NCBI GenBank assembly: GCA_017547885.1
Contig: JAFYOP010000001.1
Coordinates: 1,500 to 65,499, forward strand
Length of the DNA: 64,000 nucleotides
Origin: Clostridia bacterium
GTDB lineage: Bacteria > Bacillota > Clostridia > Christensenellales > CAG-138
Direction: 5' to 3'
This document shows positions 2,028 to 63,713 of the stretch, piece by piece. Position 1 is the first letter of the stretch. Every line of letters starts with the position of its first letter. Both the position numbers and the translations under genes were made by a program. A model generated the notes under the pieces. That model was not told where the DNA came from. It saw only the letters and a program-made list of their open reading frames with translations, and searched no databases.

Positions 2028-3386
2028 ATGAACAGCAAAACCGATCTTTGGATAGACAGCCGCAGGGAGGAGATAATCTCTGCCCTTCAGAAGCTCATCA
2101 CCTTCAAAAGCGTAAGCTGCAGAAGCGATGTGCCCGGAGAGCCCTTTGGCCCCGAGTGCAAAAAGGCCCTGACCCATACCCTGAGCCTGTGCAAGGATAT
2201 GGGCTTTGCCCCTGTTGATATGGATGGCTACATCGGCTATGCGGACTATGGCAAGGGGGAGGAGACCCTTGGCATACTCACTCACCTTGACGTTGTTCCC
2301 GAGGGGGACGGCTGGACAAAGGCAGGCCCCTATGAGGGCAGGGTAATAGACGGATGGATGGTGGGCCGCGGCACATTGGACGACAAGGGCCCCGCAATAG
2401 CCTCTGTATACGCCCTTGCCGCCGTAAAGGAAGCGGGCTATGAATTCCGCCGCAACGTGCGCCTTATATTCGGCTGCGACGAGGAGACCGGCATGGGCTG
2501 CCTCACCCATTACATGGAGCATGAGCGCATACCCGACATCGCCTTCTCTCCGGATGCGGAATACCCTCTGGTAAATTCCGAAAAGAACATATACCACGCA
2601 AAGTTTGCCTGTGAATATCCCTCTGCCATAACATTTAAGGCGGGCACCGTGGTAAACGCAGTTCCCGGCTCCGCTGAAGCCTTTGTTCCCTGCGCCATTG
2701 AAACCGTGCAGGCCGCCATAAATGGCAAAGATGGCCTTGAAGCAAAGGCCGCAGAGAACGGCACGGTGATAACCGCCACAGGCAGCGCCGCCCACGCTTC
2801 CACCCCCGAGTGCGGCAAAAACGCCATACAGATGATGATAGCCCTGCTGTGCGAGCTGCCCCTTCCTGAGGCCGATCTCAGTGCCCTCAGCGCCATAAAG
2901 GCCGCCTACGGCATGGAGTACAACGGCGAATCCGTTGGCCTTGACAAGAGCGACGAATCCGGCCGCCTTACCCTCAACCTTGGCCTTATGGACTGGAACG
3001 ACAAGGGCTATGCCCTCAGCATAGACATCCGCGCCCCTATTTCTGTATTGGAAGATGAAATAAGCGAAAAGCTTGCCGCCTCCCTGCCTATGGCAAAGCT
3101 TGAGGACGTATCCTTCAGCCACGGCCACTATGTGCCTGAGGACAGCGAGCTGGTAAGCGGCCTGCTTAAGGTTTACCGTGAGCGCACCGGGGATATGTCC
3201 GCCCCCAAGCGCATCGGCGGCGGCACCTATGCACGCCATTTCGATACCGCCGTCGCCTTCGGCATAGAGCGTGAGTATCGTGAAAACAGGCTGCACATGG
3301 TGGATGAGGCGCTGAACATGGATGATTTTATTGAGGACGTAAAGATAATGGCGGACGCCATAGTTGAGCTGGCCTGCGTAAAGTAG
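2028..3386 (+). CDS. pepV: M20-family dipeptidase (PepV / Sapep type)
   Basis: 452-aa ORF after AGGAGG. M20 hallmarks HLDVVPEGDGW, GRGTLDDKGP and FGCDEETG. Confidence 0.85.
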   Translation: MNSKTDLWIDSRREEIISALQKLITFKSVSCRSDVPGEPFGPECKKALTHTLSLCKDMGFAPVDMDGYIGYADYGKGEETLGILTHLDVVPEGDGWTKAGPYEGRVIDGWMVGRGTLDDKGPAIASVYALAAVKEAGYEFRRNVRLIFGCDEETGMGCLTHYMEHERIPDIAFSPDAEYPLVNSEKNIYHAKFACEYPSAITFKAGTVVNAVPGSAEAFVPCAIETVQAAINGKDGLEAKAAENGTVITATGSAAHASTPECGKNAIQMMIALLCELPLPEADLSALSAIKAAYGMEYNGESVGLDKSDESGRLTLNLGLMDWNDKGYALSIDIRAPISVLEDEISEKLAASLPMAKLEDVSFSHGHYVPEDSELVSGLLKVYRERTGDMSAPKRIGGGTYARHFDTAVAFGIEREYRENRLHMVDEALNMDDFIEDVKIMADAIVELACVK

Positions 3387-3610: not shown

Positions 3611-3645
3611 AAAGGGCTGTGGGAAACCACGGCCCTTTGATATTT
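3611..3645 (+). terminator. Intrinsic terminator after the FTR-like gene
   Basis: Stem GGGCTGTGG / CCACGGCCC with a GAAA loop, followed by TTTGATATTT. Confidence 0.7.
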
Positions 3646-3889
3646 ATCTAATCCCACCCACCACAGAACTAAAGTAATAGTGAATAGTGAAGGAGTATTT
3701 ATTATCTATACCCACCCGCCACCCTTTAAATGTATCTTCGCCTAATGGCGAAGACGGGGGAGGACGGATAAAGCTCCATTAACCGCGAATAACTCCATGG
3801 GGTGTAACCTATCCTGCCGATAGCACGTTTCGCTTCTCCCGCAGGGAGAAGCTTCCTTAAAGGGTGGAGGGTGGGTATAGATAATAAAT
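3641..3889. repeat. Family A quasi-palindromic element, copy A1 (extended variant)
   Basis: The order is a solo arm TATTTATCTAATCCCACCCACCACA, then a GTAATAGTGAATAGTGAAGGAGTATT module, then the full element 3697..3889. The element's arms are ATTTATTATCTATACCCACCCGCCACCCTTTAA and TTAAAGGGTGGAGGGTGGGTATAGATAATAAAT. Subterminal hairpins are TCTTCGCC-TAAT-GGCGAAGA and GCTTCTCCC-GCA-GGGAGAAGC. Confidence 0.85.
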
Positions 3890-4051: not shown

Positions 4052-4122
4052 TTCGCTTTTCTTTCTCTTTTTGCTTCTTTTTCTTCTTTATTTTCGCGTC
4101 CGAAAAGAAAGAGAAAAAGAAG
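4052..4122 (+). repeat. Family C Py-Py-Pu triplex-type module, copy C1
   Basis: TTCGCTTTTCTTTCTCTTTTTGCTTCTTTTTCTTCTTTATTTTCGCGTCCGAAAAGAAAGAGAAAAAGAAG. Same tracts 1 and 3 as 35724..35794 and the reverse complement of 63642..63713. It starts 11 nt beyond the stop of minus-strand gene 4133..4783. Confidence 0.9.
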
Positions 4123-4132
4123 GTATATCAAA

Positions 4133-4783
4133 TCACTTCCTCCTCACCCGCACCCAAAAGCCGCTGCCGTCCCGGGCACGGAGGAAGCGGGTGTAGCCGG
4201 GAGGGCCGCTGCGGCCCTCTGCGGGAAGGGCGTGAATGAGATAATCCACACCCTTGTGGCGGGACTCCCCCTCAAGATAGCAGCGGTCCGTGCCGGGATA
4301 TTCCACCCGCCGCCAGCGGGAAAAGGGAAAAGCCTGAGGGAAGGGATTCAGTACCGCGTCATCCTGAGGCGGCGGGGGAAGGGGCTGGGGCTGTTCTGCG
4401 GGGAAAAGCTCCGCCGCCTTTTGCAGTATTTCAAGGAGAGCGGCGGAATTGGGCCGCTGGGGCTGCTTGGGCTGAGCTTGCGGCGGCTGCTCAGGGTGCC
4501 GGGGAGCAGGAATAGGCTTTTGAGCCGAAAGGCCCATCAGCAACGCCGTCCGTGCCTTGCCAAGGGCAGCGGAGTGCCCCGCAAGGCAGCCCTGCATGGC
4601 TATCCTGTCTCCATCCGGCACAAAGGCGCCCACCACGTCATTAGGGGCGGATTCCCGCGGGTATACCTTGCCCTGCCTGTCAATAAGGTACAGCTCCTTA
4701 CAGGGAACGGACAGCTGTATTTCCTCCCCCAGCGTAAGAAATGCCCTGCCGCCCGGGCCTGAAAGGGTAATGAGTCTTTTCAT
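4133..4783 (-). CDS. Hypothetical protein with a Pro/Gln-rich central linker
   Basis: Track ORF 4133..4918. Start moved to ATG 4783, preceded by AAAAGGAGA. No family recognised with confidence. Confidence 0.5.
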   Translation of the reverse strand: MKRLITLSGPGGRAFLTLGEEIQLSVPCKELYLIDRQGKVYPRESAPNDVVGAFVPDGDRIAMQGCLAGHSAALGKARTALLMGLSAQKPIPAPRHPEQPPQAQPKQPQRPNSAALLEILQKAAELFPAEQPQPLPPPPQDDAVLNPFPQAFPFSRWRRVEYPGTDRCYLEGESRHKGVDYLIHALPAEGRSGPPGYTRFLRARDGSGFWVRVRRK

Positions 4784-4877
4784 GCCCTGTCTCCTTTTAT
4801 GTTTGTGTTGATATAAAACTATGATATAATTTTGCTGTATAGACTTTGACCATTGCGCCAAAGAAAGGAAGAACCCC

Positions 4878-5588
4878 ATGAAAAACAAAAAGACCCTTTC
4901 GGCCCTGCTTACCGCCATAAGCTGCGTGGCATGGCTGGTGATAATAATCGCCCTGATGTTTACTTTCCTTAGGGGGGAGCTGAAAAACGAGAGCCGCTAT
5001 CTGGCCTTTTATGAGGAATACCGCATAGAGGAGCGTACAGGCCTTACCCCCAAGGGCGCCACCGATGCCCTTATGGCGCTGGTGGATTATATGGAAGGGG
5101 ACAGAGACAGCATACAGCTTACTGTTGAAGAATACGGCGTACCTGTTGAGATGTACTCTGAGGATGAGATACACCACATGGTGGATGTGTATTATCTCTA
5201 TCAGGGCTTTGCAAAGTTTCAGCCCGCGGGCATCGCATGCGCCGTGATAATACTGCTCATCGGCTGGTACGCAAAGAAAAACGCACTGCCCAATATACCC
5301 TTGCGGAGCTTTTTCCGGGGGCTGGGGCTGTTTGTGCTTATAGGGGGCGGCCTTGCCCTGTGGGCGATGCTGGATTTCACCTCCTTCTGGACGGCATTCC
5401 ACCTTGCCTTCTTCAGCAACGACCTGTGGCTGATGGACCCCAGAGTATCCCGCATGATACGCATATGCCCGGAGCACCTCTTCAGCGGCATTGCGGGCCG
5501 CATGGCCGCAAAGACCGCCGCAATGCTGGGCGTGATATGCATTGCCCTCATTACTTACAGCAGACATACCCGCAAAAAGGAAGCGTGA
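4878..5588 (+). CDS. TIGR01906/DUF1461 family integral membrane protein (Lit-like)
   Basis: 236-aa ORF after GAAAGGAAG. N-terminal TM segment, a middle domain with the EDEIHHMVDV motif, and C-terminal TM segments, as in TIGR01906 proteins. Confidence 0.7.
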   Translation: MKNKKTLSALLTAISCVAWLVIIIALMFTFLRGELKNESRYLAFYEEYRIEERTGLTPKGATDALMALVDYMEGDRDSIQLTVEEYGVPVEMYSEDEIHHMVDVYYLYQGFAKFQPAGIACAVIILLIGWYAKKNALPNIPLRSFFRGLGLFVLIGGGLALWAMLDFTSFWTAFHLAFFSNDLWLMDPRVSRMIRICPEHLFSGIAGRMAAKTAAMLGVICIALITYSRHTRKKEA

Positions 5589-5593
5589 GAACC

Positions 5594-6664
5594 ATGAGCG
5601 AAATGTATTCAGCATCCGCGGCAAAAGGACTTGCCGCATATCAGCATAATAAGGACGCACTGCTCCTTGCCATAGAAAGCTCCTGTGACGAAACGGCGGC
5701 CTCTGTGCTGCGGGGGGACAGGGAAGTGCTCAGCATGAGCGTATATACCCAGATACCCCTCCATCGTAAGTTCGGCGGGGTGGTGCCGGAGCTTGCCTCA
5801 CGCAGCCACGTGGAAAAGATAGGGGAAGTGGTAAACTATGCCCTTGAGTCCGCAAAGGTCACCATAGACGACATATCCGCCATAGCCGTCACCTGCGGCC
5901 CCGGCCTTGTGGGGGCGCTGCTGGTGGGGGTAAGCTATGCAAAGGGCCTTGCCTTTGCCAAAGGGCTGCCCCTCATCGGCGTAAACCACCTTGCGGGGCA
6001 TATCGCTGCCAACTACCTTACATATCCCGACCTTAAGCCTCCCTTTATGTGCCTTGTGGCCTCCGGCGGGCACAGCCATATTATCAAGGTGGAGGATTAT
6101 CATAAATTCACTCTCCTTGGCCGCACCCGTGACGACGCGGCAGGTGAGGCCTTTGACAAGGTTGCAAGAGCACTGGGTCTGCCATACCCCGGCGGGCCGG
6201 AGCTTGAGAAGCTGGCCCGTGAGGGAGACCCAAACAAATACCCCTTCCACTCCGCGCTGAATCAAAGCATAGAGGAAAGCGACTTCAGCTTTTCCGGCAT
6301 AAAGACAGCGGTGGTAAACCTGCTGCACAATGCAGAGCAAAAGGGCGAAAGCCTGGATCCTGCGGACATTGCCGCGTCCTTCCAGCGGGCGGTGTGCGAT
6401 GCCCTTACAATGAAATCCGTACATGCCGCAAAGGCCCACGGCATGGACACCCTTGCCCTTGCGGGGGGAGTATCCGCCAACAAGGCCCTCCGGGGCGCAC
6501 TTGAGGCAGAGTGCAGGCGTCAGGGGGTGCGGTTCTGCTGTCCGGATTTCCGCTTCTGCACCGACAACGCCGCAATGATAGCCTGCGCCGGCCACTACGG
6601 CCTTATGGCGGGGCAGCTCAGCGGCCTTGAGCTGAATGCCGTGCCGAATCTGGCGCTGTGTTAG
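5594..6664 (+). CDS. tsaD: tRNA N6-adenosine threonylcarbamoyltransferase
   Basis: Track ORF 5237..6664, start set at ATG 5594. Motifs ESSCDETAASV, GVNHLAGH, SGGHSHI and FSFSGIKTAV are classic TsaD/Kae1. Confidence 0.95.
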   Translation: MSEMYSASAAKGLAAYQHNKDALLLAIESSCDETAASVLRGDREVLSMSVYTQIPLHRKFGGVVPELASRSHVEKIGEVVNYALESAKVTIDDISAIAVTCGPGLVGALLVGVSYAKGLAFAKGLPLIGVNHLAGHIAANYLTYPDLKPPFMCLVASGGHSHIIKVEDYHKFTLLGRTRDDAAGEAFDKVARALGLPYPGGPELEKLAREGDPNKYPFHSALNQSIEESDFSFSGIKTAVVNLLHNAEQKGESLDPADIAASFQRAVCDALTMKSVHAAKAHGMDTLALAGGVSANKALRGALEAECRRQGVRFCCPDFRFCTDNAAMIACAGHYGLMAGQLSGLELNAVPNLALC

Positions 6665-6672
6665 GGGGGAGT

Positions 6673-6730
6673 GTTCTTTTCTTTAAAAGAAAAGAACCAA
6701 AAGAAGCGTACTTTCCTTAAAGGAAAGTAC
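6673..6730 (-). repeat. Family D twin Py/Pu hairpin module, copy D1 (Py-Py-Pu sense on the minus strand)
   Basis: GTTCTTTTCTTTAAAAGAAAAGAAC-CAAAAGAAGC-GTACTTTCCTTAAAGGAAAGTAC, 8 nt after the tsaD stop. Same module as the reverse complement of 62243..62314. Confidence 0.9.
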
Positions 6731-6781
6731 CAAAGGATAAATAACATAATTAAAAAAGTTTGCACAGAAGTGCTGTCAATC

Positions 6782-10534: not shown

Positions 10535-10879
10535 GGGCGTTGCCCTTTCGCGAAAAACCATTTGGGTTTTCCGCGAGTATCCGCTGGGTTGGGGGCGGCC
10601 AAATGCTGCGCAAGTGGCCGAATACAATCCCTTTGGGGGATGCCGATTCCCTCTCGCGGCTGCGGCCGCTCCCGGGCGGGAATCGGGCAGCGGTATCCAT
10701 CCCTTGCGGGATGGTTCCGTTTTCGCCGCACATGTCGCCGAAAACGGATTGAAAGCTTTGGGCATGCTGCCGAATGCGGATTGAAAGCCTCGAAGGTCTA
10801 ATATCCTTCCGATAGCACGCCCTGTTTTTCCGCAAGGAAAAACATACCTTAAAAGGGTGGCGGGCGGGAATAGATAAAT
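10535..10879. repeat. Composite repeat A2: family B-like hairpin series fused to a family A right end
   Basis: The B-like part has TTCCCTCTCGCGG..CTCCCGGGCGGGAA, CCATCCC-TTGC-GGGATGG and CCGTTTTCGCCG-CACATGT-CGCCGAAAACGG. It ends with CCGATAGCACG, TGTTTTTCC-GCAA-GGAAAAACA and TTAAAAGGGTGGCGGGCGGGAATAGATAA. No left arm is present. Confidence 0.75.
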
Positions 10880-10964
10880 ATACCCAAACCTAACTTGCCT
10901 CAGTTGACAAAATTGCACCTGCGATTATGCGGGAGCAAAAATAAAGAACGGAAGTACACACCGT

Positions 10965-21892: not shown

Positions 21893-22034
21893 TGCAGGAT
21901 TTCCCTCTCGCCTTGCGGCTCCCGGGCGGGAAAGCCTGTAAAGAAAGAAAACCTTATGGTTTTCATCCGTTCTGACGCACATGTCGTCAGAGCCGGAATG
22001 AAAATCAAGGGGTGCGCCCCTTGATGATCCCGGA
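21893..22034. repeat. Family B structured intergenic repeat, copy B2
   Basis: Has TTTCCCTCTCGCC..CTCCCGGGCGGGAAA, then GAAAACC-TTAT-GGTTTTC, CATCCGTTCTGACG-CACATGT-CGTCAGAGCCGGAATG and ATCAAGGGG-TGCG-CCCCTTGAT, and closes with TCCCGGA. Confidence 0.75.
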
Positions 22035-22545: not shown

Positions 22546-22590
22546 GTGGGCCTCCTTTCTGCGGGTGCCTGTGGGGCAAGAGAAATGGCG

Positions 22591-22771
22591 TATTTATCTA
22601 TACCCACCCACCACCCTTTTAATGTGCTTTTTCCCTTACGGGAAAAAGGGCAGGGTTGTTCGCAAGCCCGTTCTGATATGCAATGATTTAGATGCGTGTC
22701 ATTGACAGCACCCTCGGCTTTTCCGCAGGAAAAGCTACATTAAAAGGGTGGCGGGCGGGATTAGATAATTA
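22591..22771. repeat. Family A quasi-palindromic element, copy A3
   Basis: Arms are TATTTATCTATACCCACCCACCACCCTTTTAATG and CATTAAAAGGGTGGCGGGCGGGATTAGATAATTA. Subterminal hairpins are CTTTTTCCC-TTAC-GGGAAAAAG and GCTTTTCC-GCA-GGAAAAGC. Confidence 0.9.
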
Positions 22772-22830
22772 TCCGTAAAACAACATCGATGACGTATACC
22801 ATGTACACGTCAGCGATTTATTTATGTGTG

Positions 22831-24595: not shown

Positions 24596-24632
24596 CGTTA
24601 TTCTTTGGTTCTTTTCTTTTAAAGAAAAGAAC
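24596..24632 (+). repeat. Family D module, single-hairpin variant D2
   Basis: ACGTTATTCTTTG-GTTCTTTTCTTTTAAAGAAAAGAAC, 6 nt beyond the stop of minus-strand gene 24639..25973. It equals D3 with the hairpin-b segment deleted. Confidence 0.85.
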
Positions 24633-31716: not shown

Positions 31717-31820
31717 GGGAATACCTTACCCACACAGGCAACACCGGCCTTTGGACAGAGCATCCCTTTTTCCCGCAGGGAAAAAGTACATTGAAGGGCG
31801 GTGGGAGGGAATAGATAATA
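31717..31820. repeat. Family A element, truncated copy A4 (right half plus a degenerate left arm)
   Basis: GGACAGAGCATCC, then CTTTTTCCC-GCA-GGGAAAAAG, then TACATTGAAGGGCGGTGGGAGGGAATAGATAATAAG. The left side has only a TACCTTACCCACACAGG remnant. Confidence 0.7.
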
Positions 31821-31830
31821 AGCCGCAAAT

Positions 31831-34664: not shown

Positions 34665-34916
34665 AAATTTATCTATACTCTGCCCGTAAATGAAGCTGCG
34701 GGTAATAATGAATGGTGAGAGAGTATTGATTATCTATTCCCACCCACCACCCTTTTAAGGTATCTTCGCCTGCCGGCGAAGACGGGACAGGTATGATAAA
34801 CCTCCGGCCTTTGCTAATAACCCAAAGGATAATGTACCGCATTATCGATGGAATGCTCGGCTTTTCCGTAGGAAAAGCTACATTAAAAGGGTGGCGGGTG
34901 GGATTAGATAATAATT
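34665..34916. repeat. Family A quasi-palindromic element, copy A5 (extended variant)
   Basis: The order is a solo arm start AATTTATCTATAC, then a GGTAATAATGAATGGTGAGAGAGTATT module, then the element. Its arms are GATTATCTATTCCCACCCACCACCCTTTTAAGG and CATTAAAAGGGTGGCGGGTGGGATTAGATAATAAT. Hairpins are TCTTCGCC-TGCC-GGCGAAGA and GCTTTTCC-GTA-GGAAAAGC. Confidence 0.85.
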
Positions 34917-35067
34917 ACCTTTTCACTGTTACCGATAACTTTGTTTGCGGGCGGGTATGGATTGGATCCTATATATAATCCCATAAGTCCTAAAATAATG
35001 GACGAAACAGCCGTATTGTGATATTATTATTGTAATTACGGCCATATGGCCATATGGAGGATATGTA

Positions 35068-35649: not shown

Positions 35650-35679
35650 AAAACGCCCCATCCTTCATGGGGCGTTTTT
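35650..35679. terminator. Bidirectional intrinsic terminator (part of the C2 3'-UTR cassette)
   Basis: AAAACGCCCCAT-CCTTC-ATGGGGCGTTTTT. Same hairpin as 3976..4007, with an A-T to C-G compensatory change at the stem base. Confidence 0.8.
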
Positions 35680-35723
35680 AGATAGCACGATCAGGCTTGC
35701 TTATTATATTTATTTGTTTAACG

Positions 35724-35794
35724 TTCGCTTTTCTTTCTCTTTTTGCTTCTTTTTCTGCTTTCTTTTCGCGTCCGAAAAGAAAGAGAAAAAGAAG
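35724..35794 (+). repeat. Family C Py-Py-Pu triplex-type module, copy C2
   Basis: TTCGCTTTTCTTTCTCTTTTTGCTTCTTTTTCTGCTTTCTTTTCGCGTCCGAAAAGAAAGAGAAAAAGAAG, 11 nt beyond the stop of minus-strand gene 35806..36750. Confidence 0.9.
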
Positions 35795-35805
35795 AATATC
35801 CTCCA

Positions 35806-36750
35806 TCAATAAAACGTTGCAACTTCCTTTTCCGGCTTTTGTGCAGGCTCAACATCTATAACGTGGAGCACAGGGCCGCGGCCGCCGTAGATGCGGTTAA
35901 AGCGTACCTCTATGGAGGCGGTGACTATAACCCACTGGCGCTGGGTCAGGGTGTCTGCCTTGTCCCACTTGCACACAAGGCCGCTGTATTCGATATCGTC
36001 CACACAGCAGGTCATAACGTGACGTCCGGCAATGAAGGTATCTTCGGGCAGGCGGGCGTTGCGGGCAACTATGCCCTTAAAGCGAACGGTTTTGCCTGCG
36101 TACTTTTTCAGCTCCTCGGACATATCCCGATACCATATGGCGTAGTCGTTGTCGCCGATTTCGATAACCGGAGCATCAACGTCAAAGGGGAGGGGGTCCT
36201 CAATATCGTCGTATTCCACATGGCCGTCGGTGTATTCGTAGGCGATGTTGGCACGGCGGGATACACCGCGGATTATCTTGTGTATCTCCTCTTTGTTGAG
36301 GGTGTCGTCCGCACGGTTCAGCACAACCAGCTCCGCCGTCATCAGCTTGTCCACCATAAGGGAGCGCATGTTGGTGTTGTAGGGAATGAAGGTTTTGGCG
36401 TCCACAAACATGAACTCCTGATACACTGTCCATTCCTTGGGGAAAACACGGGCAAGGTCGCTGAGCAGCCACATGCCGTTGTACTCTATCAGCACGCGAT
36501 CCGCCTGATATTTCTTGACCAGCTTGGTAAGGTCTTCGGAGGTGACCTCTTCGATATCCTCTATGGTTTCGATGTAAACGTATTTGCTGGGGAACTTTGA
36601 AGGATCCAGCTCCTCAATGCCCTCCTCGCACATCAGCACAAGGGTGCGCTCCCCGTCATTAAAGCGCTTATCGCACAGGGTCTCCTGCATAAAGCGGGTC
36701 TTGCCGCCCTCCAGAAACCCCGTGAACATATATACAGGAATCTGTTTCAT
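35806..36750 (-). CDS. G3E-family GTPase-like N-terminal domain fused to a DUF1980/TIGR03943-like C-terminal domain
   Basis: 314-aa ORF. N-terminus VYMFTGFLEGGKT (P-loop-like). The C-terminal segment GRHVMTCCVDDIEYSGLVC resembles YcgQ/DUF1980. Confidence 0.65.
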   Translation of the reverse strand: MKQIPVYMFTGFLEGGKTRFMQETLCDKRFNDGERTLVLMCEEGIEELDPSKFPSKYVYIETIEDIEEVTSEDLTKLVKKYQADRVLIEYNGMWLLSDLARVFPKEWTVYQEFMFVDAKTFIPYNTNMRSLMVDKLMTAELVVLNRADDTLNKEEIHKIIRGVSRRANIAYEYTDGHVEYDDIEDPLPFDVDAPVIEIGDNDYAIWYRDMSEELKKYAGKTVRFKGIVARNARLPEDTFIAGRHVMTCCVDDIEYSGLVCKWDKADTLTQRQWVIVTASIEVRFNRIYGGRGPVLHVIDVEPAQKPEKEVATFY

Positions 36751-36753
36751 GTA

Positions 36754-37902
36754 CTATACTCCAAACAGCTCCATAAGGGCGGATTCATTCAGCTTTGCGC
36801 CGATTACGCACAGCCTGCCGGTAACGCCTGCGCTGCCTTCGCGAACGTTTATCTCGCCGGGTACAAAGTCAAAGTGTATCCAGGCATTTTCGCCCTTCAG
36901 TATGCCCTTTGCCCTGAGTACCGCGCCGTACTTTTCCTCGTCCTCAAGGGCGGCAAGGGCAGCGGCGATACCTTCCGCAGAGAAGGCCTTGGCAGTTTCA
37001 ACGCCCCAGCTGGTGAATACTTCGTCAGCGTGATGATGGTGATGATGTCCGCACTCGCACTCGTGGTCATGCTCGTGATGATGGCCGCATTCGCACTCAT
37101 GGTCATGCTCGTGATGATGGCCGCATTCGCACTCGTGGTCATGCTCGTGATGATGGCCGCATTCGCACTCATGGTCGTGTTCGTGATGGCCGCACTCGCA
37201 CTCGTGGTCATGCTCGTGATGATGTCCGCACTCGCACTCGTGCTCGTGATGGTGGTGGTGATGATGCTCGCTTTCTGCCTTCAGGTGTGCAAGCTCCTCA
37301 TCAAGGGTGTCGCGGCGCTCCATGGCGGTGAGTATCTGTGCGCCGGTCAGCTCATCCCAGGGGGTAGTGATGAGGGTGGCATCGGCGTTGTGCTGACGGA
37401 TAAGCTCAACGGTGGCGGTGAGCTTGTCCTCGGATATGCCTGCGGTGCGGGAGAGGACTATGGAATTGGCGTGCTCTATCTGGTCGTTGAAGAATTCACC
37501 AAAGTTCTTCATGTACATCCTGCACTTGTTGGCGTCAACGATGGCGGTAAAGCTGTTGAGCTGCAGCTCCTCTGCTCCCACGTCCTGTACGGCGCGGATA
37601 ACGTCGCTGAGCTTGCCTACGCCGGAGGGCTCTATCAGTATACGGTCGGGGGAGTACTGCTCCAGCACCTTCTTGAGGGCCTCGCCAAAATCGCCCACCA
37701 GGCTGCAGCAGATGCAGCCGGAGTTCATTTCGGTAACCTCAATTCCGGCTTCCTCAAGGAAACCGCCGTCAATGCCTATTTCACCGAATTCGTTTTCTAT
37801 AAGTACCAGCTTTTCCCCGCCAAATGCCTCGGGGATGAGCTTCTTGATGAGAGTAGTCTTGCCTGCGCCCAGGAAGCCGGAAAAAATATCTACCTTTGTC
37901 AT
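36754..37902 (-). CDS. CobW/COG0523 family GTP-dependent metallochaperone with a long His/Cys repeat insert
   Basis: Track ORF 36754..38055, start set at ATG 37902 (MTKVDIFSGFLGAGKTT); ATG 37914 is an alternative. Has the CICCS motif (CxCC), the ILIEPSGVG switch and a CobW C-terminal domain. The insert is (HDHECECGHHHE)n. Confidence 0.85.
   Translation of the reverse strand: MTKVDIFSGFLGAGKTTLIKKLIPEAFGGEKLVLIENEFGEIGIDGGFLEEAGIEVTEMNSGCICCSLVGDFGEALKKVLEQYSPDRILIEPSGVGKLSDVIRAVQDVGAEELQLNSFTAIVDANKCRMYMKNFGEFFNDQIEHANSIVLSRTAGISEDKLTATVELIRQHNADATLITTPWDELTGAQILTAMERRDTLDEELAHLKAESEHHHHHHHEHECECGHHHEHDHECECGHHEHDHECECGHHHEHDHECECGHHHEHDHECECGHHHEHDHECECGHHHHHHADEVFTSWGVETAKAFSAEGIAAALAALEDEEKYGAVLRAKGILKGENAWIHFDFVPGEINVREGSAGVTGRLCVIGAKLNESALMELFGV
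37030..37268 (-). repeat. Coding tandem repeat, 36-bp unit x about 5.5, inside the COG0523 gene
   Basis: Units GCCGCATTCGCACTC(A/G)TGGTCATGCTCGTGATGATG begin at 37048, 37084, 37120, 37156 (33 bp) and 37189. They encode HHHEHDHECECG repeats flanked by His runs. Confidence 0.9.
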
Positions 37903-38113
37903 GGTTTGATGCATCTCTTTTCGTTGTATTTTGAGAAGGAAGACTGCAAAAGGCCATCCCTCCACAACTGTATTATAGTCAGACAGAAGCGGATATACAA
38001 GGGCACACGGGCATTTTCTTGCTATGTTCACAGGTAAGGAGGAATTTCGCCACAAATTATGAACAAATGCGTATTATAGGTGAACTGAATAAAAAATATG
38101 GTATAATAGGCCT

Positions 38114-45473: not shown

Positions 45474-45564
45474 GGAGAGATGGCTGAGTTGGTCGAAGGC
45501 GCACGACTGGAAATCGTGTAGTGCAGGAATGTACTCAAGGGTTCGAATCCCTTTCTCTCCGCCA
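45474..45564 (+). tRNA. tRNA-Ser (anticodon GGA), class II with a long variable arm, CCA encoded
   Basis: GGAGAGA acceptor pairs with TCTCTCC. The anticodon loop is CTGGAAA. The T-arm is AAGGGTTCGAATCCCTT, and the 3' end is GCCA. A possible promoter TTGCTT-17-TATTAT lies at 45387..45415. Confidence 0.9.
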
Positions 45565-60083: not shown

Positions 60084-60203
60084 CAAACAAAAGGGCAACC
60101 CGATTCACATACTCAAATGAGAATCAGCTTGCCCAGGCGGTCGGCTTATTGCGTACGGTTCCCTTGTGGTAAGCCACTTCCGCCAGTAGCCGTACGAGTA
60201 GTA
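60084..60203 (-). promoter_or_regulatory. ZTP (pfl motif) riboswitch with a terminator expression platform, upstream of purE
   Basis: The minus strand reads CGUACGG-CUACUGGCGGAAGUGGCUUACCACAAGGGAA-CCGUACG-CAAUAAG-CCGACCGCCUGGGCA. This contains the conserved ACUGGCGGA, GUGG/CCAC and CCGACCGCCUGGGCA pseudoknot blocks. The GGGCA overlaps the 5' arm of terminator GGGCAAGCUGAUUC..GAAUCGGGUUGCCC-UUUUGUUUG. Confidence 0.9.
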
Positions 60204-61704: not shown

Positions 61705-61967
61705 TGGGTAACCTCCTGTGAATGAATAATGTATAATTTATCTCCCCGAGCATGCATCGGGATACGATGCAGTCCGACAAAATTACGGACAAATCTTCAT
61801 TATACTACCACGGCAAGGGGGGATTCGCAACAATAAATTGAAGCTTTTTTATGGCATCAGCCCCTTAATTTACGCATGAATGACAGTACAAAATCCGATG
61901 GAAAAAATGGAATGGGAAGGGAGGGCAAACCTGTTGAAATAATAGAAAAAGACGGGCGGCAAAGGAG

Positions 61968-62153
61968 TAATTATCTATCCCCACCCGTCACCCTTTTAAT
62001 GTATATTCGCCTTACGGAGAAGAAAAAGGAGTATAAATTATATGTAAACCTGAAAAGCATGCACTGACATTATCCGGTGTCAGCGTAAGCTTATCCTTTT
62101 TTCCCGTAAGGGAAAAAGTACATTGAAGGGTGGAGGGAGGGAATAGATAATTA
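61968..62153. repeat. Family A quasi-palindromic element, copy A6
   Basis: Arms are TAATTATCTATCCCCACCCGTCACCCTTTTAATG and CATTGAAGGGTGGAGGGAGGGAATAGATAATTA. The right subterminal hairpin is CTTTTTTCCC-GTAA-GGGAAAAAG. Confidence 0.85.
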
Positions 62154-62179
62154 AAAAGCTCACTTTTTGCCAAAACCAC

Positions 62180-62242: not shown

Positions 62243-62314
62243 TACGCTATTCTTTGGTACTTTCTTTTAAAGAAAGTACGCTTCTTTTGGTTCTTTTCTT
62301 TTAAAGAAAAGAAC
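62243..62314 (+). repeat. Family D twin Py/Pu hairpin module, copy D3 (Py-Py-Pu sense on the plus strand)
   Basis: TACGCTATTCTTTG-GTACTTTCTTTTAAAGAAAGTAC-GCTTCTTTTG-GTTCTTTTCTTTTAAAGAAAAGAAC, ending 8 nt from the serS stop codon. Confidence 0.9.
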
Positions 62315-63641: not shown

Positions 63642-63713
63642 CTTCTTTTTCTCTTTCTTTTCGGACGCGAAAAGAAATGAGAAAAAGAAGCAAAAAGAGA
63701 AAGAAAAGCGAAA
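63642..63713 (-). repeat. Family C Py-Py-Pu triplex-type module, copy C3 (sense on the minus strand)
   Basis: The reverse complement reads TTCGCTTTTCTTTCTCTTTTTGCTTCTTTTTCTCATTTCTTTTCGCGTCCGAAAAGAAAGAGAAAAAGAAG. It lies between the stop of 63745.. and the serS start. Confidence 0.9.

Follow-up and report, generated by a model that had tools for sequence, protein, structure and literature searches.

The window analysed here, a stretch of 64,000 nucleotides of Clostridia DNA, contains at positions 35724-35794 an intergenic module whose three tracts, all on one strand, are related by mirror and by inverted symmetry at once. This layout raises the question of what kind of element the module is and on which nucleic acid, DNA or RNA, its fold might be selected. 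With roughly even confidence, and from sequence comparison, we conclude that the module is a copy of a dispersed, REP/BIME-like intrastrand triplex (PIT) repeat whose fold would be selected mainly on transient single-stranded DNA.

Architecture of the module and its relatives in the window

Between 35728 and 35794 the module runs, in order, T1, a single G, CTTC, T2 with a bulged G, a CGTC loop, T3 and GAAG. Its parts are as follows.

35724-35727, plus strand: 5' lead TTCG, conserved among aligned copies
35728-35744, plus strand: T1, pyrimidine tract CTTTTCTTTCTCTTTTT, candidate Hoogsteen third strand, matching T3 at 17/17
35745, plus strand: single-G linker, the same base in all family members examined
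35746-35749, plus strand: outer stem 5' strand CTTC, partner of GAAG at 35791-35794 (folds and covariation)
35750-35767, plus strand: T2, Watson-Crick pyrimidine arm TTTTTCT(G)CTTTCTTTTC, bulged G at 35757
35768-35773, plus strand: closing G-C pair (35768/35773) around loop CGTC (35769-35772), read from the sequence; the pair covaries
35774-35790, plus strand: T3, purine arm GAAAAGAAAGAGAAAAA, central strand of the proposed triplex (fold and symmetry)
35791-35794, plus strand: outer stem 3' strand GAAG, pairs with CTTC

Without its bulge, T2 is the reverse complement of T3, and the two tracts form a 22-bp hairpin with a folding energy of -26.5 kcal/mol as RNA (z = -3.8) and -20.3 kcal/mol as DNA (z = -4.6). 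T1 is related to T3 as a same-direction complement at 17/17 positions, both in this copy (C2) and in two further copies in the window (C1 and C3). The best antiparallel pairing of T1 with T3 yields only 14/17 Watson-Crick pairs, inferior to the 17/17 of the parallel register, and was rejected as the conserved relation. All asymmetric tracts fit the parallel (Hoogsteen) register exactly. This register implies 13 T*A-T and 4 isolated C+*G-C triplets in C2, and the latter require protonated cytosine, so that a triplex of this composition would depend on pH. The three-way symmetry had been described in the first-pass annotation of this DNA, and it holds in full. That annotation also took GCTTC to be a free 5-nt turn between the pyrimidine tracts. 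This part does not stand, since CTTC pairs with GAAG in the hairpin and the pairing covaries in relatives.

Two other copies are present in the window.

4052-4122, plus strand: copy C1, T2 with a bulged T and one C-to-A change
63642-63712, minus strand: copy C3, T2 with a bulged A

As had been noted before, T1 and T3 are identical among the three copies and T2 alone differs. The 3' end of C2 lies 11 nt before the stop codon (35806-35808) of a convergent CobW-like/DUF1980 gene, and C1 ends 10 nt short of the stop codon of another convergent gene, at 4133-4918. The co-directional ORF upstream of C3 ends 31 nt before it, and the serS start codon (63591) follows 50 nt after it. C1 and C2 form direct repeats 31.7 kb apart.

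The window also holds three loci of a cousin family.

62245-62314, plus strand: two tandem modules, ending 8 nt before the serS stop codon
6673-6737, minus strand: two modules, ending 8 nt after the tsaD stop codon
24601-24632, plus strand: a single recombinant module, combining T1 from module 1 with the hairpin from module 2

The cousins are unlike the main copies in sequence and follow the same 3'-anchored T1/T3 rule on the same scaffold. The modules at 62245-62314 read TTCTTT-G-GTAC..AAAGAAA-GTAC and TTCTTTT-G-GTTC..AAAGAAAA-GAAC. Relative to the copy at 62250, module 1 of the 6673-6737 locus carries a coordinated change in all three tracts: T1 goes from TTCTTT to TCCTTT, T2 from TTTCTTT to TTTCCTT, and T3 from AAAGAAA to AAGGAAA. 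The T1/T3 register is broken in the recombinant (3/6). As a negative control, the opposite strand of base-family hairpins had a T1-like flank in 0 of 4 cases.

In the window the T1 17-mer is found three times without mismatch, and the T1 pattern with up to 3 mismatches has 7 matches where 0.2 are expected. We counted pyrimidine-to-purine tract pairs of at least 10 nt within 90 nt of each other that are parallel complements in 100 third-order Markov replicas of the window; they averaged 0.04 per replica, and none exceeded 10 nt. The figure of 2^-17 given in the first-pass annotation is too optimistic because the tracts are 76% T; 0.64^17 (about 5e-4 per alignment) is fairer.

Upstream of C2 lie two further shared features.

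35650-35679, strand not assigned: A-tract, GC hairpin (CGCCCCATCCTTCATGGGGCG) and T-tract, read from the sequence (repeat D15)
35680-35723, plus strand: spacer ..AGCAC..GCTTGCTTATTAT..TTTAAC, common to a subfamily of copies (comparison with C1, L030 and orthologs)

The first is a likely bidirectional terminator, to judge by its layout. It is common to C1 (3971-4006) and to orthologous loci, and the consensus terminator scan did not call it. The spacer contains a weak promoter-like pair, TAGATA-17-TATTAT, and might conceivably serve as a promoter. A promoter-like TTGnnn-17/18-TAttAT in the common spacer is a weak lead.

Several other identities were considered and rejected. No Rfam family reached the gathering threshold for the window or for 11 related loci, and in E-value mode Rfam gave only generic hairpin noise (miRNA precursor models) far below threshold. 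The module is not an intrinsic terminator, as no T-run follows the hairpin on either strand; terminator and promoter scans of the three window copies found nothing convincing at the module and reported only a separate upstream terminator. A small ORF is not supported either: copies do not agree in reading frame, and the ORFs that span the module are artefacts of the T and A tracts. The attL/attR sites of an integrated element are excluded by the many further copies in unrelated contexts and by the inverted orientation of C3. A scan of a viral collection gave 0 matches.

Coordinated variation across the family

A 21-nt loop anchor was found in 9 places only, in 3 Clostridia MAGs among the GTDB species genomes. 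An 18-nt anchor was found at 75 metagenome loci, including long copies from a camel metagenome and an abundant rumen-type base family. Within the databases searched, the repeat is confined to Christensenellales-like Clostridia MAGs and to metagenomes from camel and of rumen type, and a homologue of a neighbouring protein is named Christensenellales. The hosts are uncultured Clostridia of gut and rumen, probably Christensenellales-like. Copies are dense: three copies and three cousin loci share the 64-kb window, and contigs of about 9-10 kb carry 2-4 copies each (L030, L059 and L013). All copies, in the window and on single contigs, are located between genes, and one pair (L005a/L005b) is arranged head to head.

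We compared 33 related loci, which fall into about 10 sequence types with T1 lengths of 5 to 17 nt. All share one scaffold: T1, one G, a 4-bp outer stem, T2, the loop, T3 and the second strand of the outer stem. T1, T2 and T3 change together through substitutions, one-base changes in run length, and modules of 4 and 8 nt. With each tract written as the lengths of its T or A runs, the types (4,3,1,5), (4,3,1,4), (4,5,4), (5,3,1,5), (4,3) and (4) are each matched in all three tracts. The question of whether substitutions preserve the three tracts together, raised by the first-pass annotation, is thereby answered positively, by several types and at two orthologous loci.

The match between T1 and T3 is perfect in 25 of 29 curated copies, in 27 of 31 when two C1-locus orthologs are included, and at 27 of 33 loci overall. 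Of 23 long copies, just 1 has a perfect Watson-Crick match between T2 and T3; the other 22 have a bulge, a mismatch or a missing base in T2. Position 10 is C/G in 16 loci, T/A in 7 and discordant in 3 (Fisher's exact test, p = 4e-4, uncorrected for kinship among the loci). In the asymmetric types (n = 6, from two families) the parallel register is perfect in every one and the antiparallel register in none. The coordinated variation and the perfection of T1/T3 support selection for a putative third strand of the pyrimidine motif. This covariation, together with a third-strand match that is better kept than the Watson-Crick match, is hard to explain without selection for a three-stranded fold.

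The hairpin covaries as well. The outer stem appears in relatives as CTAC/GTAG, CTGC/GCAG, GTTC/GAAC, TTGC/GCAA and GTAC/GTAC; at one pair position UA, AU, GC and CG are all seen. The closing pair covaries from CG..CG to CC..GG, around loops such as CGTT, TGCT, ATA, TCGT, TCCT and TCTT. The T2 bulge is conserved in position and variable in base (T, G, A or C).

Uncompensated changes occur in four copies (L079, L063, I3 and I5), and two orthologs are decayed (L096 and L098). In five insert-type copies a GC-rich insert replaces T2 while T1 and T3 are kept; either T2 is dispensable for whatever maintains these copies, or the copies are young. In the base family, which looks ancestral, CGCTT takes the place of T1 and has a predicted pairing partner in an AAGCG further downstream.

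Orthologous loci exhibit the same coordination. The C2 locus retains the element in relatives with 95% and 86% identity in the adjacent protein; there the last run is one base shorter (5 to 4) in all three tracts, with CTAC/GTAG as outer stem, CC..GG as closing pair and new loops. At the C1 locus, one relative has type a and another has type c. Where the element is missing, in relatives at 83% and 69% protein identity, the intergenic DNA cannot be aligned, and no clean empty site or duplication can be read from it; terminal inverted repeats, another feature of MITEs, are absent from the module. Deletion derivatives are represented by L096, at an orthologous locus, and by the recombinant at 24601.

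Common descent links the types, and matched tracts could travel together by gene conversion, so that the independent coordinated events are few, roughly 6-8. No form of templated copying yields a same-direction complement, and descent alone therefore makes no new matched types.

Relation to described repeats and triplexes

Hoyne and Maher reportedly described the PIT, BoxC and TMECO triplex repeats of E. coli and other bacteria in 2000 and 2002. The first-pass annotation knew of no bacterial repeat family with the layout of our module, and this was wrong in kind: BoxC/TMECO are intrastrand triplex repeats, which are divided into classes I-IV (Holder et al. 2015, PMC4666352). In class IV the Hoogsteen, pyrimidine and purine blocks follow one another on one strand, and the third strand runs parallel to the purine block in T*A-T and C+*G-C triplets (PMC4666352). 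All three window copies have this layout, at 17/17 positions. By tract order, the element is class IV on the pyrimidine-sense strand and class II on the other, where the order is pyrimidine, purine, purine. The module falls outside the limits of the ITxF search (stems of 6-15 nt, at most 1 mismatch and loops of 1-6 nt; PMC4666352), as its stem is 16-17 nt and its pyrimidine block is bulged; on ITxF terms its loops are 5 nt (GCTTC) and 6 nt (GCGTCC). Such limits belong to the search tool and not to the concept.

BoxC/TMECO resemble our element in many ways. Both are short, multi-copy, strictly intergenic repeats with three successive blocks on a single strand that follow triplex pairing rules, two of them being the arms of a hairpin. 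In both, the complementary strand holds the partner class, orientation to genes or strand is not fixed, head-to-head pairs occur, and deleted or mutated copies are found at orthologous loci. The consensus of BoxC/TMECO is CCCTCNCCC N3-6 GGGNGAGGG N3 GGGNGAGGG, in proteobacterial or cyanobacterial hosts (PMC4666352), and direct reading of the module found no similarity to it. Whereas BoxC/TMECO are G/C-rich, the module has A/T-rich tracts and a Clostridia host; it belongs to the same kind of repeat and to another family. The perfect relation in BoxC/TMECO is the purine motif (class II) over 9 triplets, but in the module it is the pyrimidine motif (class IV) over 16-17, about twice the length. 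Two features of the module have no counterpart in BoxC/TMECO: the 4-bp outer stem, which covaries, and the bulge conserved in mid-stem. Its putative third strand is also backed by coordinated variation, which the accounts of BoxC/TMECO consulted do not mention. For BoxC/TMECO, the triplex has been observed on isolated single strands only, with no function found in vivo, and Holder et al. linked such motifs to genome instability (PMC4666352).

The in vivo meaning of the PIT/BoxC triplex potential has been an open question since 2000. The present family adds a new kind of evidence, in that a third strand co-varies with its hairpin in two sequence-unrelated families on one scaffold. It also provides natural compensatory "triple mutants": types (4,3,1,5), (4,5,4) and (5,3,1,5), and the TTCTTT and TCCTTT cousins.

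The element is also, like REP/BIME sequences, a short, multi-copy, extragenic imperfect palindrome, dispersed between convergent genes and within operons, and a mosaic, here of terminator, spacer, hairpin and insert-variant modules. What REPs lack is a third tract in register with the hairpin arms. REP/BIME sequences are also associated with a RAYT (Y1) transposase that recognises a conserved 5' tetranucleotide. In E. coli, many REP hairpins are found no more than 15 nt from a stop codon (Liang et al. 2015, cited in PMC12306157).

Among RNA triplexes, the MALAT1 and PAN ENE and the telomerase pseudoknot share with the module the order Hoogsteen U-rich, Watson-Crick U-rich, A-rich, and consist mostly of U*A-U with isolated C+*G-C. 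They differ from it in being eukaryotic or viral (the ENEs), or 3-10 triplets long inside larger folds. An ENE has its two U-rich strands on opposite sides of an internal loop, where they clamp a downstream A-rich 3' tail of the same RNA, whereas T1 of the module is not opposite T2; and ENEs are transcribed, with the 3' end at the A-rich tract, whereas for most copies of the module it is doubtful that the required strand is transcribed. The reviews of RNA triplexes consulted list no long bacterial ones of this kind, the bacterial examples being riboswitches and group II introns.

Gene context and the nucleic acid on which the fold may act

Copies occur in both orientations relative to genes. 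At about two-thirds of loci the module starts 8-16 nt past a convergent stop codon. At the remaining third, approximately, it lies 24-50 nt upstream of a start codon, on the coding strand and roughly 10 nt before the Shine-Dalgarno sequence. Automatic gene-context calls were confounded by shadow ORFs in this 54% GC genome, and ambiguous contexts were settled by eye from Shine-Dalgarno and ATG positions.

Because both orientations relative to transcription are found, we infer that the fold is selected mainly on transient single-stranded DNA. While the pyrimidine-sense strand is single-stranded, T1 could occupy the hairpin's major groove as a Hoogsteen strand in parallel orientation. Such a three-stranded fold may be selected in replication or transcription bubbles, or in the repeat's own propagation or gene conversion. 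Many E. coli REP hairpins near stop codons stall terminating ribosomes and block 3' exonucleases. The hairpin part of the module probably also acts in mRNA, just past stop codons. Judged by geometry, the outer helix and the complete fold of 17 triplets are probably mutually exclusive, at least in B-form DNA; the full register appears to need an open outer stem because a single G joins T1 to that stem.

A tentative alternative, which we think somewhat unlikely, is that the fold works as RNA: the pyrimidine-sense transcript would form U*A-U and C+*G-C triplets and protect an RNA end or gate a ribosome-binding site. The third of loci that precede start codons on the coding strand fit this reading, as does the isolation of the C+ triplets, an arrangement reported as tolerated in cells. 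The U*G-C triplets of L079 and I5 are a tolerated non-canonical triple. In A-form pseudoknots a short loop crosses the deep groove, and the constant one-base linker and 4-bp outer helix of the module resemble that arrangement. Base-family copies often have an A/T-rich -10-like box 0-7 nt upstream, together with G-U pairs in the pyrimidine sense. Against these points, about two-thirds of loci place the module past the stop codon of an opposite-strand gene and behind the terminators of the co-directional gene, and at convergent loci there is probably little or no transcription of the pyrimidine sense; even so, T1/T3 is kept at the C2 locus down to 86% protein identity. In one subfamily (L005c, L009, I1 and I5) transcripts of the upstream gene are predicted to end within T1. 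The lack of any Rfam match at threshold and the unconvincing promoter scan at the three window copies likewise count against this reading. It is doubtful that pyrimidine-sense RNA, arising by read-through or from the promoter-like spacer, folds into a major-groove triple helix of 16-17 triplets with the conserved bulge inside it. If it did, no natural RNA triplex would come near it in length, and it would be the first one in the style of MALAT1 or telomerase to serve as a modular, dispersed bacterial mRNA element. It would then protect RNA ends or gate nearby ribosome-binding sites, and would extend long triple helices to bacterial gene expression.

That the module is a plain REP-like hairpin appears unlikely. 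Here only T2/T3 would matter, as a structure near mRNA 3' ends or termination sites or as a transposase site; T1 would be a U- or A-rich flank (a terminator tract) or an alternative Watson-Crick and G-U partner of T3, and the T1/T2 mirror a product of low complexity and common descent. The hairpin does start 8-16 nt from stop codons at most loci, as do the E. coli REPs that affect translation, and in one subfamily T1 doubles as the U-tract of an adjacent bidirectional terminator. T1 is predicted to pair antiparallel with T3 in an insert-type copy, the antiparallel match rises to 16/17 when G-U pairs are counted, and type (4,5,4) is its own mirror image. Yet the six asymmetric types, from two families, are perfect in the parallel and not in the antiparallel register, T1/T3 is perfect at far more loci than the hairpin (27/33 against 1/23), templated copying cannot yield a same-direction complement, and the opposite strand of the base family lacks such a flank.

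The least probable reading, which we regard as quite improbable, is duplex H-DNA, in which the T1/T2 mirror would fold under negative supercoiling with G+CTTC as the central loop and act as a barrier to transcription or replication or as an intergenic recombination hotspot. The first-pass annotation was right that T1 and T2 form a homopyrimidine mirror repeat with a 5-nt centre, as in H-DNA, and T1 is anchored there in all families; the case is weaker than it claimed because T2 is imperfect in almost every long copy (22 of 23), T1/T3 being the perfect relation. T3, which enables the single-strand fold, has no counterpart in H-DNA, insert-type copies lack T2, and most copies lie between convergent genes, where positive supercoiling would be expected to dominate. 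The deletion derivatives (L096 and the 24601 recombinant) fit an unstable non-B DNA.

Architecture of the C2 module

Re-reading of its parts and coordinates confirmed the sequence and layout that the first-pass annotation gave for the module copy C2. The module contains three tracts: T1, a pyrimidine tract and candidate Hoogsteen strand, and T2 and T3, the pyrimidine and purine arms of a hairpin.

Parts of C2, and the other two window copies
35724-35727, +: lead, TTCG
35728-35744, +: T1, CTTTTCTTTCTCTTTTT
35745, +: linker, G
35746-35749, +: outer stem, 5' strand, CTTC
35750-35767, +: T2, TTTTTCT(G)CTTTCTTTTC, bulged G at 35757
35768-35773, +: closing pair and loop, G CGTC C
35774-35790, +: T3, GAAAAGAAAGAGAAAAA
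35791-35794, +: outer stem, 3' strand, GAAG
4052-4122, +: copy C1, differing from C2 within T2 only
63642-63712, -: copy C3, differing from C2 within T2 only

The predicted fold of C2 is a 22-bp hairpin with one bulge, formed by T2/T3 plus CTTC/GAAG, with folding energies of -26.5 kcal/mol as RNA (z = -3.8) and -20.3 kcal/mol as DNA (z = -4.6). T3 is the same-direction complement of T1 at 17/17 positions and, as the annotation had stated, both tracts are identical in the three window copies, which vary only within T2. The window contains three exact occurrences of the T1 17-mer, and the T1 pattern with at most 3 mismatches gives 7 matches there against 0.2 expected. A third-order Markov model of the window was used to make 100 replicas; pyrimidine/purine pairs in parallel-complement register, at least 10 nt long and within 90 nt, had a mean of 0.04 per replica, and none was longer than 10 nt. 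With tracts that are 76% T, the odds of 2^-17 first placed on the match were overgenerous; chance is nonetheless excluded as the source of the three-tract match.

Coordinated change of the three tracts

Copies, including loci from other MAGs and metagenomes (L- and I-numbers), were typed by the lengths of successive T (or A) runs in each tract. Each type listed is matched in T1, T2 and T3.

Run-length types
(4,3,1,5): window copies and many others
(4,3,1,4): L005c, L087-L090
(4,5,4): L003a, L005a, L030d, L013a, I4, L095; position 10 changes from C,C,G to T,T,A
(5,3,1,5): L005b; position 1 changed in like manner
(4,3), short form: L004, L008, L010, L006; an 8-nt module missing from all three tracts
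(4): base family

T1/T3 matching was perfect in 25/29 copies of the curated table and in 27/31 after addition of the orthologs L095 and L097, with two decayed loci (L096, L098) beyond that. The match is imperfect in L079 and I5, where T stands opposite G at position 10, and in L063 and I3. These counts and the matched types answer a question raised by the first-pass annotation: substitutions do preserve all three tracts together. Antiparallel Watson-Crick pairing of T1 with T3 reaches at best 14/17 in the asymmetric types, or 16/17 with G-U pairs; the two registers are indistinguishable only in the self-mirror type (4,5,4). Since a same-direction complement cannot arise by any templated copying, new matched types need selection.

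Five insert-type copies have, in place of T2, a GC-rich insert of ~52 nt that carries two hairpins (GGAGCCGGGAGACGGCTCC and CTGCCTGCGGGCAG). T1 and T3 remain, still perfectly matched in 3/5, and antiparallel T1:T3 pairing is predicted to close a multi-branch junction.

Insert-type copies
L013:5137-5250
L083:1824-1942
L030:~5990-6101 (-)
L059:5475-5588
L059:8192-8305 (-)

At the level of sequence, a cousin family with the same scaffold obeys the same T1/T3 rule.

Cousin modules in the window (same scaffold, other sequences)
62245-62314, +
6673-6737, -
24601-24632, +

Their T1/T3 pairs are TTCTTT/AAGAAA, TTCTTTT/AAGAAAA and TCCTTT/AGGAAA, and the copies at 62250 and 6737 differ by coordinated changes of T to C in T1, T to C in T2 and A to G in T3. 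The L006 pair TTTTCCTTT/AAAAGGAAA is matched at 9/9 positions. A generic scan (pyrimidine run, one base, 4-bp outer stem, hairpin with a purine 3' arm) found the T1 3' end anchored to the last purine before the outer stem in ~10 sequence types. Base-family hairpins read on the opposite strand, which have the same scaffold and a CCCC flank, scored 0/4 and serve as a built-in negative control.

The C2 locus, downstream of a CobW-like/DUF1980 gene, keeps the element where the neighbouring protein is 95% and 86% identical; the element is absent from relatives at 83% and 69% identity. Where kept, its final run has gone from 5 to 4 in all three tracts, with outer stem CTAC/GTAG, closing pair CC..GG and new loops CGTT and TGCT. 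At the C1 locus, one relative has the identical type (4,3,1,5), a second has type (4,5,4) within the same flanking spacer, a third retains T1 alone as a deletion derivative, and the copy in a fourth has degenerated. Whole-module swaps of this sort could come from gene conversion between copies, so the orthologous loci show persistence of the matched state and not independent events.

Family extent and gene context

The conserved unit of the repeat is ~75-83 nt. A 21-nt loop anchor, searched against one genome for each GTDB species, was found in only 9 places, all of them in three MAGs labelled 'Clostridia bacterium'; a homologue of a neighbouring protein carries the label Christensenellales. 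An 18-nt anchor search of metagenomes returned 75 loci: about two dozen chance matches, long copies from a camel co-assembly, and ~40 members of an abundant base family in rumen-type metagenomes. A profile search of fetched DNA added copies with other loops. Copy density is high (3 copies and 3 cousin loci in the 64-kb window; 2-4 copies on single contigs of about 9-10 kb). No Rfam family matched the repeat in the window or related loci, and no Rfam entry matched the base family.

The base-family layout is GCGAAGCnnnnnCGCTTTTGCTT-CTTTTCG-CGTC-CGAAAAG-AAGC-GGGG..CCCC..CTCAAGCGCAGCGAC. RNAalifold predicts a three-way junction of P1 (CGCTT paired with downstream AAGCG), the hairpin P2, in which one hypervariable pair covaries, and P3, which also shows covariation. 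The family spans loci L012-L082 (e.g. L070:3958-4044 -, L077:8480-8600 +) and has the same loop and scaffold as the window element. In most copies, an A/T-rich box that looks like a -10 element lies 0-7 nt upstream, and tandem copies of CTCAAGCG[A/C]AGCGAC often follow.

Every copy is intergenic. At ~2/3 of loci an opposite-strand gene has its stop codon 6-23 nt (mostly 8-14) from the purine end of the module (C1 10 nt, C2 11 nt, cousins 8 nt), so that gene's mRNA has a purine-sense hairpin right after its stop, upstream of a separate bidirectional terminator. According to Liang et al. 2015, as cited in PMC12306157, many E. coli REP hairpins have a like position, no more than 15 nt from a stop codon, where they stall ribosomes at termination. 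At ~1/3 of loci the module lies 24-50 nt before a same-strand start codon, ~10 nt ahead of the Shine-Dalgarno sequence (C3 before serS, L003a/b, L005b, L007, L030a, I4). Orientation is thus mixed for both transcription and strand. In the L005c, L009, I1 and I5 subfamily, T1 doubles as the U-tract of an adjoining bidirectional terminator. At L005:2479-2668, (4,5,4) and (5,3,1,5) modules stand head to head, 57 nt apart, between two co-directional genes, recalling the inverted pairs described for TMECO in E. coli.

Known triplex repeats and candidate readings

The first-pass annotation knew of no described bacterial family with this layout; that claim does not hold, as the kind is covered by Holder et al. 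2015 (PMC4666352), whose account defines four intrastrand triplex motif classes. One strand of the module falls into class IV (Hoogsteen, pyrimidine, purine), the complement into class II. As described there, BoxC/PIT/TMECO is a repeat that occurs in many copies, always between genes, and has no preferred orientation; TMECO forms a triplex when its strand is isolated, is linked with local genome instability, and is reported in that account to lack promoter and terminator activity and to leave no clear footprint in vivo. Though of the same layout kind, the module is by sequence outside the BoxC family: it is A/T-rich with no similarity to BoxC, possesses a conserved bulge and an additional outer stem, and is hosted by Clostridia. 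Its 16-17 predicted triplets also fall outside the 6-15 that ITxF searches.

We favour, at roughly even confidence, the reading that the module would be a new REP-like intergenic repeat of the PIT (potential intrastrand triplex) type, constrained in sequence so that its hairpin retains a pyrimidine-motif third strand. The mixed orientation makes it most likely that selection would act on single-stranded DNA or on the repeat's own propagation; the hairpin is also present in mRNA, beside gene ends.

Between T1 and the 5' end of the outer stem, a helix of 4 covarying base pairs, there is a single G. One nucleotide would be too short, in B-form DNA, to span from the last triplet to the far stem end, so a full triplex would need GCTTC looped and GAAG unpaired. 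The module would then take up either the triplex or the hairpin-only state. Among A-form RNAs, H-type pseudoknots have short loops that pass across the deep groove of a short helix, and the constant spacing of one base and 4 bp may be a crossing of that kind. An RNA triple helix would be unlikely; two RNA triple-helix reviews list bacterial triplexes only for riboswitches and group II introns. A plain hairpin with T1 as an incidental flank is quite improbable: selection is needed for the matched types, and the hairpin itself is perfect in only 1/23 long copies. T2 almost always has a missing T, a C-to-A mismatch or a 1-nt bulge, the bulge being conserved in place but variable in base (T, G, A or C). 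Triplex formation within duplex DNA (H-DNA) appears very unlikely.

Other elements in the window
3634-3888, 22584-22772, 34702-34926, 61943-62154: second, MITE-like repeat family
10822-10881, 31763-31822: single arms of that family
60124-60200, -: ZMP/ZTP riboswitch (53 bits; gathering score 39)
45474-45561, +: long-arm tRNA
1844-1934, 21922-22012: 91-nt direct repeat, 82% identity
37007-37296: seven 33-36-nt tandem repeats within gene 36754-38055 (-)

The MITE-like family, which had no Rfam match in the window scan, has ~30-nt terminal inverted repeats (TTATCTATnCCCACCCnCCACCCTTTTAA ... TTAAAAGGGTGGnGGGnGGGnATAGATAA) flanking a ~130-nt core and is tandemly duplicated in the ortholog L097. The first 91-nt copy lies just upstream of an M20 peptidase gene (2028-3386), so the repeat may be an undescribed leader or regulatory element. 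The tandem repeats code for a stretch rich in His, Cys and Glu (HEHDHECECGHH...) within a CobW/COG0523-type GTPase, and the adjoining second CobW-like/DUF1980 gene flanks C2.
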